DNA of 63,447 bases, filler included, from Octopus bimaculoides (lineage: Eukaryota): the NCBI RefSeq assembly GCF_001194135.2. It is 5 parts of 5 records of this genome, joined end to end, with 100 filler letters (N's around TTAATTAATTAA, not from the genome) between each part and the next. Parts side by side here need not be neighbours in the genome. Positions count along the whole stretch, not along the records: positions 22,901 to 39,123 come from NC_068987.1; positions 39,224 to 59,443 come from NC_069008.1; 3 more parts are not named here. The stretch is one strand, 5' to 3'. A program made the position numbers and the translations under genes. The notes under the pieces were generated by a model. The model ran no database searches, was not told where the DNA came from, and was given only the letters and a program-made list of their open reading frames with translations. Positions 27,094 through 40,600 of this stretch are shown piece after piece (positions within the stretch are counted from its first letter, which is position 1; each line of letters begins with the position of its first letter).

Positions 27094-27131
27094 TTGTGAA
27101 CATTTCGTTTAACACGTTTAACTCATCAGCT
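27094..27131 (-). ncRNA. Minimal type I hammerhead-ribozyme-like motif
   Basis: Minus strand: AG CTGATGA GTTAAA-CGTG-TTAAAC GAAA TGTT CA; canonical core and helix II (5 of 6 bp); helix III ATGT (likely from ACGT); helix I largely lost. Confidence 0.55.
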
Positions 27132-27339
27132 TTTTGAGAATGTTATTAGTTTTGTCAAGAACGAGGTGCAGAATTTCACAACTTTGCCAATATTTAATGT
27201 ATCAATTATGATTGTATATAAATATGTTCACACGTATGTATGGATGGGCATACATACGTACGTACATACGTTACATACATGCTTACATGCATACATACAC
27301 ATATATGGATATGAATATATGTATACACACACACACGCA

Positions 27340-27379
<40 letters not shown>

Positions 27380-27498
27380 TATGTATGTATACACACACAT
27401 ACATATATATATGTATAAATATATACATATGCAAACATACATACATGCATACATACATACATACATACATACATACACACACACACCCACACACACAC

Positions 27499-27552
<54 letters not shown>

Positions 27553-28208
27553 NNNNNNNNNNNNNNNNNNNNNNNNNNNNNNNTATATATATATATATAT
27601 ATATATATTCGTATTTGAAATTTGCTAATTTACAATATCACACTTCCAATATACCAGAAAGCTTGTGGTTAGGTTCACACAGAAATACTTGGCTCTATGT
27701 TTATAAATTATAAATGGTTCTGCTGTCATATTCGTGTATAATGAGTACTTCGTGATGCAATGAAGTAACTAATGTGACGTAATTTCAATTATTTTAACAA
27801 AGTGACTATTATTATTACAATTTAAACTGTGGTAAATGTGTAAGTCTGAGTGGAATATAAATATATGGTGGGAATTCCATGAAATGTGCTGATATAGAAA
27901 ACAAATTAACAAAGATGTGATAGTGTATACGTGTTGAAATATCATGGACGTTCATTGGTTTCATGAAGAACCATATAGTCCATCCTTAAGAATGACTGAT
28001 AACTTTTGCGGTGACTTTATTTAAATTGAAGAAGAGTTGCGTTCCGGCAACCTCATTCTCACATCTGTAGCCATCTTCAATCCAGTGGAAAATGCATGTC
28101 AAGGCGACTAGAGATCGGAACGGATGCAGTCAATGATCAAGATATCTTACTTGCCTCATCTTGATCTCTGCACTACACATTACGTTGCTGTAGCCACCTT
28201 TTCCGCAG

Positions 28209-28256
28209 TTGAGTCATGAAGAATCTGCCGGCTTCAGTCTTTGCATCGATATATAG
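28209..28256 (+). CDS. Candidate 48-nt exon with possible start codon (MKNLPASVFASIY)
   Basis: Acceptor CCACCTTTTCCGCAG| and donor TAG|GTAAGC; only the ATG at 28216 gives an open frame. Confidence 0.25.
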   Translation: MSHEESAGFSLCIDI

Positions 28257-28532
28257 GTAAGCCCTAATATGTTAATTAATATATAGCTGGGACCCTGACA
28301 AGTGCTGCTACTCGGAGTTAGAGTAGACCTTGGAATGTTAGCGGCTAAGAGAAACTGAAATAGGACGACTAGAAACAAGGGTAATATAAGTATATACATA
28401 TCGGAATATAAGCTTAAAATATAGAAACAAATTTAATTAATTCGAATAACTAGTCAAGCTATTTTTTGTATTCTAGAAATAATCAGGTTCATAGTATAGC
28501 CGTGCTGACGAGGGCGGCAAGTTGACGAAGGC

Positions 28533-28670
28533 GGCACAATCGTTGGCACAATCGTTGGCACAATCGTTGGCACACTGGGCAAAATATTTCGTGGTGTTTC
28601 TTCTTGCTTTACGTACTGCGTTCATATTCCACCGAGATCGACTTTGACATTCATCCTTTCGGCATAGATA
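28533..28670 (+). mobile_element. Family C SINE with triplicated 12-bp A-box segment
   Basis: (GGCACAATCGTT)x3 followed by the family C body TTCATCCTTTCGG. Confidence 0.65.
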
Positions 28671-29294
28671 AGTAACAGTACAACACCTAAAAAAGAATTC
28701 AGGACTGTGATTATAATAGAAAGAATTTATATGATACTTTGGTTATCGAAAATATATGAAATTTACAGCCGGATTAAATAGAAAATGAAAAGTGTGGCTT
28801 CATGAAACGTAGTCTCCTAGTTTGTAAAACAAGAATTAATACTATATTCTTCACAATTTTTACAATCGCATGCACTGCTAGTTGTCCTTAACCTGATTTC
28901 CGGGTTTACATAATGAGCAAAATCGAGTAGACAAGGACTTTATGGAAAGAGGGTTAGTGTTTGTAGAATTCTGAGCCGCTTAAACTATAATACAATGGTC
29001 TATAACGGAATTGCAAACACAATATTACTAGATATTTTCCGAAGTAAGATGATATGTTAAACAGTATATTATTATTTATAGGTACAACGATACAAAGCAA
29101 AATGCAAATTACTATATTTTAGAGACTAATTTTTGCTCAAAGATGAATTAAGAGTTGTAATAAATGACAGTAGATTGGTAATACTACATTACTACATTCG
29201 TAAGAATATACTAGATTATGATGCAAAGCATTCAAGAGGGATATGAAAATTCAGTGAGTTCTTAACATATGCAAACGAATTATTACATGTCATA

Positions 29295-29355
<61 letters not shown>

Positions 29356-29797
29356 GTATATATACATATATATATGTATATATATANNNNNNNNNNNNNN
29401 NNNNNNNNNNNNNNNNNNNNNNNNNNNNNNNNNNNNNNNNNNNNNNNNNNNNNNNNNNNNNNNNNNNNNNNNNNNNNNNNNNNNNNNNNNNNNNNNNNNN
29501 NNNNNNNNNNNNNNNNNNNNNNNNNNNNNNNNNNNNNNNNNNNNNNNNNNNNNNNNNNNNNNNNNNNNNNNNNNNNNNNNNNNNNNNNNNNNNNNNNNNN
29601 NNNNNNNNNNNNNNNNNNNNNNNNNNNNNNNNNNNNNNNNNNNNNNNNNNNNNNNNNNNNNNNNNNNNNNNNNNNNNNNNNNNNNNNNNNNNNNNNNNNN
29701 NNNNNNNNNNNNNNNNNNNNNNNNNNNNNNNNNNNNNNNNNNNNNNNNNNNNNNNNNNNNNNNNNNNNNNNNNNNNNNNNNNNNNNNNNNNNNNNNG

Positions 29798-29970
29798 CCG
29801 AACCGCTAAGTTACGGGGACGTAAACACACCACCATCGGTTGTCAAGTGATGTTGGGGGACAAACACAGACACAAACATACACACACACACATATGTATA
29901 TATATATATATACGTATATACGACGGGCTTCTTTCAGTTTCCGTCTACCAAATCCACTCACAAGGCTTTG
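29798..29970 (-). mobile_element. Composite SINE (B part + microsatellite + truncated A)
   Basis: Matches the consensus; ends abruptly at the foldback element. Confidence 0.88.
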
Positions 29971-38610: not shown

Positions 38611-39123
38611 TATTTAGTGTGAAGAGGCCTACTTATGTTCAAGGGTGCTACAGATTTGACCATCTCGTCCATCTACTCAACATTCGGAATCTATCTAAGT
38701 GTACAATAATTTAATGTATTCATTCTCTTTTCCATAGCGGTAAGGCGTGATTTAGGATAATTTGACTGACATTTCTTGTGCATCGAGTAATAACATAGCG
38801 ATTCCCTTGTTGTTAGAATCGATATGTATCAGTGATGTACTGCTGTCGTTTTATCGACCACATCAACCGACAAGCATGTATAGTTAGCTTTGTGACTATA
38901 TTACGAAAAGCGTAATTATTCCTATGTATGTTAGCACTAATTAGAGAGGGTGTAGACCATTGTATTTATCAGGTGGTGGGATAGAACGGCTTTCATTATT
39001 TGAAAAAAAAAAAGAAACCCAAAATATCTTATTGCACAAAACACAATTTTATACTGTGTGTGTGTGTATGTGTATGTGTGTGTGTGTACAAACACAGACA
39101 TTGGGTGGAAGGCACTTATTGTG

Positions 39124-39223
39124 NNNNNNNNNNNNNNNNNNNNNNNNNNNNNNNNNNNNNNNNNNNNTTAATTAATTAANNNNNNNNNNNNNNNNNNNNN
39201 NNNNNNNNNNNNNNNNNNNNNNN
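39124..39223. other. Artificial scaffold-join spacer
   Basis: 44N-TTAATTAATTAA-44N. Confidence 0.95.
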
Positions 39224-39333
39224 ACCTGATCTGAGATCGTGCGCTGGAACGAAAACAACTGCAGCGCAGGAGGTGTTTATAAGCCATTTAAGAAACACAC
39301 AAAAACCGCGATTCACTTGGATATTTAAATTTA

Positions 39334-39386
39334 ATTTGCCAAAATATTTTCGTCACTTTGAGACCACGACATGTTCACTGACAAAA
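39334..39386 (-). ncRNA. Type I hammerhead-like ribozyme with G3-C8 core swap
   Basis: TTTGTCA GTGAACA T GTCGT-GGTCTTCAAA-GTGAC GAAA ATATT T TGGCAAA: 7-bp helix I, 5-bp helix II, palindromic AATATT helix III, predicted UUU cleavage triplet. Confidence 0.7.
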
Positions 39387-39398
39387 TTCTGTGCTGCA

Positions 39399-39450
39399 TT
39401 TTGTCAATGAACAAGTTGTGGTCTGAAAGCACTGAAAATATTTTGGCAAA
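39399..39450 (+). ncRNA. Decayed second copy of the same hammerhead-like motif
   Basis: TTTGTCA ATGAACA A GTTGT...GCACT GAAAATATTTTGGCAAA; G3 changed to A, helix II broken. Confidence 0.45.
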
Positions 39451-39682
39451 TTAAATTTAAATGTCGAAGTGAATCTAATGCACTTTTTGTGTGTCTCTTA
39501 AATGGCTTATAAACACCTCCTGCGCTGCAGTTGTTTTCGTTCCAGCGCACGATCTCAGATCAGGTCACTTGCTATGCAAGTACATCTCCATAATATATAT
39601 ATATAAAATTTAGAGAAAAACCACCAATATACAATTCAAACAATGAAAGAGTTCAATCACCTTCCAGAAAAATGTACTCTTA

Positions 39683-39809
39683 TCATCATCATCATCGTCT
39701 TAACGTCCGCTTTCCATGCTAGCATGGTGAACCAGATGGCTACACCAGGCTCCAATCTGATTTGGCAGAGTTTCTGCAGCTGGATGCCCTTCCTAACACC
39801 AACCACTCC
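39683..39809 (-). mobile_element. Family D 3' fragment inserted in foldback 2
   Basis: (CAT)n tail and GGATGCCCTTCCTAACACCAACC; absent from the opposite arm. Confidence 0.88.
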
Positions 39810-39982
39810 ACTAATTTAAAAATCTATAAAAATTTATAACATACCAATCTAAAAATTTAATCAAACATGAAAGTGCATTTCGTGGCTCAATTAAGCAGAA
39901 AAAAAATCAATACAATTCAAAATAAATTGATCTAGATTAAATTCTACTCAAAAGTGTAGTCATATATATTTTTATTTTATTA

Positions 39983-40093
39983 TAGACCTGAAGAGTGACT
40001 ATATTTTTGAGTAGAATTTAATCTAGATCAATTTATTTTGAATTGTATTGATTTTTTTCTGCTTTAATGTAGCCATGAAACGCACGTAGTCAA
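39983..40093 (+). ncRNA. Type I hammerhead-like ribozyme with approximately 80-nt helix II
   Basis: GAC CTGAAGA GTGACTATATT...AATGTAGCCAT GAAA C-GCAC-GT A GTC; canonical core, GUA site predicted after 40088; helix I only 3 bp in this copy. Confidence 0.65.
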
Positions 40094-40408
40094 CCTATTA
40101 CTGTTCATTTTATTAATTTAATTTCATGTTTAATTAAATTTTTAGATTAGTATTTTATAGATTTTTATAGATTTTATGTTTCTTGTAGATTTTATAGATT
40201 TTTAAATTAGTATTTTATAGAGTACGTTTTTCTGGAAGGTGATTGGACTCTTTCATTGTTTGAATTGTATATTGGCAGTTCTTCTCTAAATTATATTTAT
40301 ATACATATATTATATATTATGAAATTCAATTTGGTATTACTAAATTGAATTTTCCTGTAAGTTTGGAATTATACATTCTCTAATATTATTATAATATTAT
40401 ATTATATA

Positions 40409-40600
40409 TAGGGAGAATTCACAAACAAAACAACAGACAAAGACAGGTGGTGTAGAAAACAACCAGATGTATTAGTATAATGCTCGTGAATTGAAAAAAG
40501 TCTTTAATGTTTCGAGCCTACGCTCTTCTACAGAAAGGAACGCAGAAAGAAACAAGGAGAGAAAAAAAATGTATGTAGTGGCTAGCGATCTATCATGGTG
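40409..40600 (-). mobile_element. Family P copy 2
   Basis: Similar to 30556-30755; motif GAAGAGCGTAGGCTCGAAAC at 40502-40537 (minus). Confidence 0.65.

Follow-up and report, generated by a model that had tools for sequence, protein, structure and literature searches.

Two hammerhead families with variant cores, probably ends of Penelope-like elements, in TA-rich DNA of Octopus bimaculoides

Introduction

Hammerhead ribozymes in the pseudo-long terminal repeats (pLTRs) of Penelope-like elements (PLEs), and inverted pairs of these repeats, are established in print (PMC8557442, PMC4209133, PMC3846280), as was noted in a preliminary description of the DNA considered here. This is positions 27094-40600 of a 63,447-nucleotide stretch (the window) made up of five joined parts of the Octopus bimaculoides assembly GCF_001194135.2, in which five sequence families were said to share hammerhead topology: A (27.1 kb), B (30.0-30.3), C (30.6 and 40.5), D (39.2-39.6) and E (39.6-40.3). 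That claim is partly confirmed, in that two of the five families, C and D, carry convincing hammerheads, whereas A is without a proper helix I, B has no convincing motif and E lacks GAAA. D and C, and less surely A and E, probably arose when hammerhead-bearing pLTRs, the ends of elements from different Penelope-like families, were inserted as short pieces.

Several described systems bear on this locus. Arkhipova (2013; PMC3846280) reported pLTRs of ~200 bp, solo pLTRs and head-to-head inverted pLTRs with palindromic junctions, and PLE pLTRs there include the start of the open reading frame (ORF). The metazoan PLE consensus of Cervera and De la Pena (2014; PMC4209133) runs through helix I, CUGANGA, an extra base, a G..C helix II, GAAA, a palindrome, U and H; the same paper covers dimer cleavage, a natural U3-A8 pair, hammerheads paired on opposite strands at distances of 100-700 bp, and the presence of many divergent families in one genome. 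Craig (2021; PMC8557442), where the role of PLE hammerheads is stated as unclear, documents targeting of (TA)n and copies in inverted orientation. Its octopus example from the Hydra clade is Hydra-1_Obim, 2507 bp long, with (TA)n as target and a motif entry at 2403; in Penelope-13_HM an inverted 5'-truncated copy occurs and the motif is on both strands, and both elements set a direct precedent for the present locus. The anole element Poseidon PAc (Frangieh 2024; PMC11167929) inserts uncleaved RNA, AT-rich DNA being its preferred target, and its cleavage is protein-assisted; a C3G/G8C double mutant partly cleaves, and insertion in vitro did not require cutting.

In retrozymes, units of 150-450 bp, each with a classical type I motif, are repeated in tandem, head to tail (Cervera and De la Pena 2020; PMC7229834). 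Core variants on record include natural U3-A8 and a weakly active A6C (Perreault 2011; PMC3088659), and G3-C8 is mentioned only as an engineered variant in the accessible text of Kalweit (2013) and of a 2021 review. A natural G3-C8 or U6 core was not reported anywhere in the literature covered, which excluded Lunse 2017 and supplements, the likeliest source; octopus hammerheads, with Lunse 2017 likewise outside the coverage, were not found reported either. According to Bonar (2026; PMC13282606), 190 PLE families together make up 6.83% of the genome in O. vulgaris; ribozymes go unmentioned in the accessible text of that paper.

Results and Discussion

Hammerheads of families D and C

The three foldbacks and the C repeat pair of the preliminary description are real: the inverted repeats are 88% alike in B (29967-30317) and 88% in D (39224-39565), the E arms 93% (39607-39680 against 40292-40219, with 156/177 in the inner arms), and the C copies agree at 186/216 positions. 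The features of D and of its left border are as follows.

39124..39223, no strand: spacer N44-TTAATTAATTAA-N44, likely an artificial scaffold join
39224..39590, no strand: head-to-head foldback of family D, the left end falling in the N spacer
39335..39385, minus strand: D left-arm minimal type I hammerhead, predicted cut after 39342
39400..39450, plus strand: D right-arm hammerhead copy, decayed (A3, C8 kept, helix II broken)
39502..39591, plus strand: 30-codon ATG frame reaching the D end, possible PLE ORF start, unconfirmed

The left arm combines a 7-bp helix I, one extra base (9a), a 5-bp helix II, GAA and a 6-nt palindrome as helix III around the core G3-U4-G5-A6-A7-C8-A9 (39378-39372), and has every conserved hammerhead core feature (a Watson-Crick pair 3-8, G5, A6, A9, G12-A14 and A15.1-U16.1), the 3-8 pair being G3-C8. 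Its score of 26.1 is the highest of any hammerhead-shaped site on either strand of the window; 22 was reached in none of 60 block shuffles, and a second shuffle test gave 0/30. The descriptors were written with the candidates in view, so all shuffle rates given here are optimistic. The right arm scores 18.7, against 19.2 for an unrelated site at 34757, and 18 was reached by 6/60 shuffles. In the run mapping described below (40 of 268 rows listed), majority letters at 39355, 39366 and 39371 (left arm) and at 39414, 39419, 39425, 39431 and 39432 (right arm) agree, and give both arms one shared helix II with five Watson-Crick pairs and G as the extra base.

As had been claimed for both 39-kb foldbacks, the inversion centre lies directly 5' of helix I, at a distance of 4-10 nt: the centre of D is at 39394.5 and its helices I start at 39385 and 39400, and that of E is at ~39979 with helix I starting at 39983. 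At the far end of D the distal 70 bases of the two arms (39224-39294 and 39495-39565) are identical and share letters unlike the family majority, which may be due to a single template, to gene conversion or to the assembly beside the join.

Family C is present twice.

40411..40603, minus strand: family C solo copy, TA runs at both sides; hammerhead 40537-40502, U6, predicted cut after 40506
30554..30765, minus strand: family C second copy; hammerhead 30681-30646 with an ACGU palindrome, A4 and U6, predicted to be cut after 30650

Both copies are ~200 bp long with similar 5' ends. The core is best read as C3-U4-G5-U6-N7-G8-A9 plus an extra A, with U6 in both copies and 4-bp helices I and II, the latter closed by a tetraloop and followed by GAA-ACGU (GAAA..U); the A6 required in the hammerhead core is thus lacking. 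An alternative register, U3-U-G-A-A-G-A, was dropped since its helix II is weak, whereas the C3-U-G-U6 register gives 4 bp in both helices. A match of equal quality appears in 12/1000 shuffles for the copy at 40533 (one core deviation) and in 51/1000 for that at 30677 (two core deviations). The C descriptor misses D because the third pair of D helix I is G-U.

With their palindromic helix III the C and D motifs are of the minimal, dimer-type class and may cleave as dimers. The G3-C8 swap of D preserves the 3-8 pair and is predicted to leave partial activity, and the U6 of C is predicted to lower activity strongly. The local copies are decaying. Folding by minimum free energy gave none of 8 motifs a better value than shuffles, and no hammerhead stood among the Rfam matches listed (150 of 158); the top Rfam match, MIR6140 at 39314-39471, was rejected, as it is below the gathering score and reflects the long hairpin. 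Motif scans of viral, metagenome and prokaryote genome contigs returned 0 matches.

Abundance and reads

Sequence runs were mapped at 80% likeness to 39224-40620, which holds D, E and the 40.5-kb copy of C and excludes A, B and the 30.6-kb copy, using two DNA contig sets (two species labels) and two RNA read sets. Runs holding part of this stretch (20 of 24 listed) bear three species labels, and none of those listed is recorded as RNA. Summed contig depth in one DNA run, X1, which is not a copy number, ranges from 0.27 to 1.15 million in D, from 0.19 to 2.8 million in C and from 69 to 15,853 in E outside the fragment resembling a short interspersed nuclear element (SINE) in its left arm, compared with ~48 on the unique piece 39784-39929. 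The abundance of C and D, in DNA runs of two species labels, is clearly very high and far exceeds that of E. The depth of C is maximal on the hammerhead bin in both DNA runs (2.81M in X1, against 1.32M and 0.86M in the flanks), and is raised on the D and E motifs. Among the rows listed (40 of 268) there is no difference at D positions 3 and 8 or C position 6, with some expected differences also missing from them; fixation of D G3-C8 and C U6 across each family is likely, not proven.

RNA reads from the two runs fall equally on both strands, 97-98% of them continue into unlike sequence, and most are <95% alike, so they derive from other copies. Their ends do not pile up at the predicted cuts, which is uninformative on cleavage because the active anole motif also showed no such ends; a pile at 40412 marks the edge of a stretch skipped in mapping.

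The preliminary description also proposed that the repeats might be retrozyme-like, and they are indeed short, non-coding and hammerhead-bearing in a phylum, the molluscs, that has retrozymes (PMC7229834). Spread as metazoan non-LTR retrozymes by way of self-cleaved circular RNAs is nevertheless highly improbable. Copies here are solo or head-to-head, with no tandem head-to-tail copies in the window; the motifs are minimal rather than classical; starts and ends lie away from the cut site; and the joint rows listed (15 of 134, from ordinary RNA-seq) include no RNA-supported back-joint.

Families A, B and E

The remaining families, and a repeat fragment inside one of them, are listed below.

27099..27129, minus strand: motif A, canonical CUGAUGA core, helix II of 5 pairs with G10.1-C11.1, GAAA
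29965..30319, no strand: foldback of family B, with unconfirmed candidates for decayed cores at 30195 (+) and 30086 (-)
39607..40292, no strand: family E foldback in TA-rich sequence, right arm with CUGAAGA at 39988, without GAAA
39682..39810, no strand: SINE-like repeat fragment within the E left arm, matching 5788, 17129, 42142 and 47233; the deepest stretch in the run mapping

Motif A likewise has all the conserved core features listed for D, but its helix I is only 1-2 bp, and no second copy was found in the window. A canonical core with GAAA alone is at chance level (3 observed, 2.2 expected); the motif A core with helix II arose in 4/300 shuffles. Another canonical core, as good as motif A and overlooked earlier, lies at 61102-61130 (+), with an extra base, a 4-bp helix II, GAA and an ATAT palindrome and without helix I.

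The cores proposed for B at 30195 (+) and 30086 (-) are outside the three best sites of either strand, and its best hammerhead scores arise from the foldback centre itself; no TA tract at its ends and no target duplication were seen. Its left end overlaps a truncated SINE-like repeat by a few bases. In E the left arm starts at 39962, past the core and so inside the motif, leaving CUGAAGA in the right arm only; the motif scores 4.2 and lacks A15.1.

B and E are where a different origin is likeliest, namely that the foldbacks are DNA transposons of the type of miniature inverted-repeat transposable elements (MITEs), with a hammerhead likeness due to chance or a relic. Both have inverted ends and fail the motif tests, the ends of E are compatible with this in being flanked by TA on both sides, and the window contains Tc1-type transposase remnants. 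For the set of families this origin is nonetheless improbable. The D motif beats 60/60 shuffles and two other inverted-repeat regions score low (best 5.1 at 36.5-37.5 kb, <16 at 7.5-8.1 kb); C is not a foldback and is without inverted ends; and the arms meet at the centre and are truncated asymmetrically, rather than bracketing a constant core.

Origin of the insertions

Insertion of PLE ends would account for the arrangement of the motifs as well as their structure, which has the same architecture as the metazoan PLE consensus (PMC4209133). A minimal type I hammerhead ~100-300 nt from the 3' end is present in C and D and partial in A and E, and is not found in B; measured hammerhead-to-end distances are 95-270 nt. 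D and E are head-to-head and C is solo, arrangements known for inverted 5'-truncated and solo pLTRs. The claim that most copies sit in TA-rich repeats stands in part: 5/9 element ends are <=3 nt from a (TA)4+ run (1.4% of window positions are within 5 nt of one), whereas the two ends of B are not. The adjoining ends of D and E share a single TA run, the E right end is in imperfect TA-rich sequence, and the 5' end of the 30.6-kb C copy adjoins (TATG)n; targets are AT-rich or (TA)n except in B.

Copying would depend on a Penelope reverse transcriptase (RT) and GIY-YIG nuclease encoded elsewhere in the genome. The nuclease would first nick AT-rich or (TA)n DNA, as is known from other PLEs and would fit the TA flanks seen here. 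Reverse transcription would then begin ~100-270 nt downstream of the hammerhead, as is known for the anole PLE, and either run to the RNA 5' end or halt early, producing a stump of 200-350 nt. At insertion an inverted, further 5'-truncated copy could be joined head-to-head, an arrangement that is seen in the foldbacks and would explain why their centre lies just 5' of helix I. The template RNA would be uncleaved, because motif sequence to either side of the predicted cut is retained in the C and D arms; we infer that the foldback centre marks the region of the RNA 5' end and not the cut site. Five X1 contigs (depth 59-78) depart from the D left arm at 39397-39399 and re-enter at 39450, 39498, 39524 or 39548. 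All these joints are from a single run, each is carried by one contig and has sides of 21-38 nt, and they are flagged unreliable. They suggest a common centre at other D loci with inverted arms of varying length, which is what locus-by-locus differences in truncation of the inverted arm would produce.

A number of observations weigh against an origin from PLE ends. Neither RT nor GIY-YIG was detected by Pfam in the stop-free frames scanned, 122 at 25.5-42.7 kb and 94 in the rest of the window, so that no family is tied to an autonomous PLE; these 216 frames were chosen by place, length and complexity from 571 frames of >=45 aa, and the result agrees with the earlier statement that no such ORF is visible. 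Truncated stumps would not carry an RT and GIY-YIG ORF. A search with the 30-aa frame of D gave one match, to an unrelated repetitive protein, and no relative. Besides the frailty of the D joints, the arms of D diverge most within the motif (8/36 columns) and are identical over the last 70 columns, so that protection of the core is lacking here, which speaks against selection at this locus; depth is as high or higher off the motifs, peaking at the 3' end of D (39553-39599, 1.15M) and in the distal arm of E (40164-40210). Target-site duplications, which in EN+ PLEs vary and may go with a tail of 30-40 bp, are not readable, the D left end being in the N spacer and TA flanks masking duplications; B and E fail the motif tests; and five short motifs from the window are absent from the accessible supplement text of Craig (2021; PMC8557442), where line breaks may hide matches.

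The proteins in question could instead act in trans on dedicated non-autonomous mini-elements, C and D being transcribed from short master copies and not arising as by-products of full-length PLE RNA. Summed depth over C and D is >=10^4 times that of the unique piece 39784-39929 (~48; not a copy number), the C copies are of like length and 5' end, and both in-trans mobilisation of pLTRs and non-autonomous PLEs are on record (PMC8557442, PMC3846280). We consider this unlikely, since the lengths of the inverted arms of D and E vary, which argues against copying of the foldback as one unit, and internal initiation on a normal PLE RNA would also be expected to yield stumps of fixed length (PMC11167929).

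Derivation from PLE ends thus remains the preferred reading, and the Penelope-dependent origin with non-standard cores put forward earlier is supported for C and D and is less sure for A and E. The notion of a single candidate system is not supported: insertions of unrelated families have accumulated in TA tracts, and the probable scaffold join that had been reported within the span splits it. Because the spacer at 39124-39223 is probably artificial, the 27-39 kb and 39.2-40.6 kb pieces are possibly not neighbours.

The element class, the foldbacks and TA targeting are already known, and only the variant cores of C and D may be new. More tentatively, D and C could represent two abundant families of PLE ends with fixed core letters that are absent from hammerhead catalogues. 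If so, fixation of D G3-C8 would mark selection for an active fold, because the single-step intermediates are inactive, while the U6 core of C, perhaps catalytically crippled, would have spread as widely as D or more; the two would amount to a natural experiment on whether PLE hammerheads have to cut, and core-based searches would be overlooking whole PLE families. With the 3-8 pair kept by a double change in D and A6 lost in C, these motifs offer natural substrates on the role of cutting, and their core letters are a reason for looser search descriptors.

Surrounding sequence

The context of 27094-40600 is AT-rich animal DNA dense in microsatellites and in copies of a few kinds of SINE-like repeat, with 25 N runs; the window has four pairs of N44 with a spacing of 12 bases. 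SINE-like repeats number >10 copies, including 29797-29970, 40623-40801 and 13227-13620, and clusters of a short degenerate repeat (~60-110 bp, both orientations) lie at 48754-49813 and 53549-54281. In a MITE-like element at 7514-8081 the terminal inverted repeats are 40 bp long and 95% alike, other inverted repeats lie further in, and a short telomere-like palindrome, CCCTAA/TTAGGG, is close to the centre; the element is without a hammerhead. An inverted pair at 36526-37473 (78%), in which a hammerhead scan found none, is situated between two copies of another repeat (36161-36512 and 38185-38610, 70-73%). Transposase remnants are present at 62329-63087 (+), with Pfam HTH_Tnp_Tc3_2 at 62329-62661 (E 1.5e-12), and in a minus-strand frame at 25025-25297, the latter mariner-like as judged by eye only.

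Comparison with known systems

The motifs resemble the pLTR hammerheads of PMC4209133 in being type I with a short helix I, an extra base after A9, G10.1-C11.1 and a palindromic helix III, and in the occurrence of opposite-strand pairs and many divergent families in one genome. They differ in that the 56 representative cores given there are CUGANGA (53) or start with U3 (3), and none is G3-C8 or U6; such variants would have been missed because the descriptor required the core. With the Hydra-clade PLEs of PMC8557442 they share the (TA)n target, a hammerhead that lies ~100 nt short of the 3' end, copies that are inverted and 5'-truncated, and an octopus host. All File S2 motifs of that paper start CUGANGA, and the Hydra-1_Obim motif differs in sequence from A-E, which have no ORF here to give a clade. 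With PAc the locus has in common the proposed uncleaved template, the AT-rich target, a proposed start of reverse transcription downstream of the motif and the lack of reads ending at the cut site; in PAc, G3-C8 was engineered as a rescue mutant, and here it is natural in at least one genomic copy.

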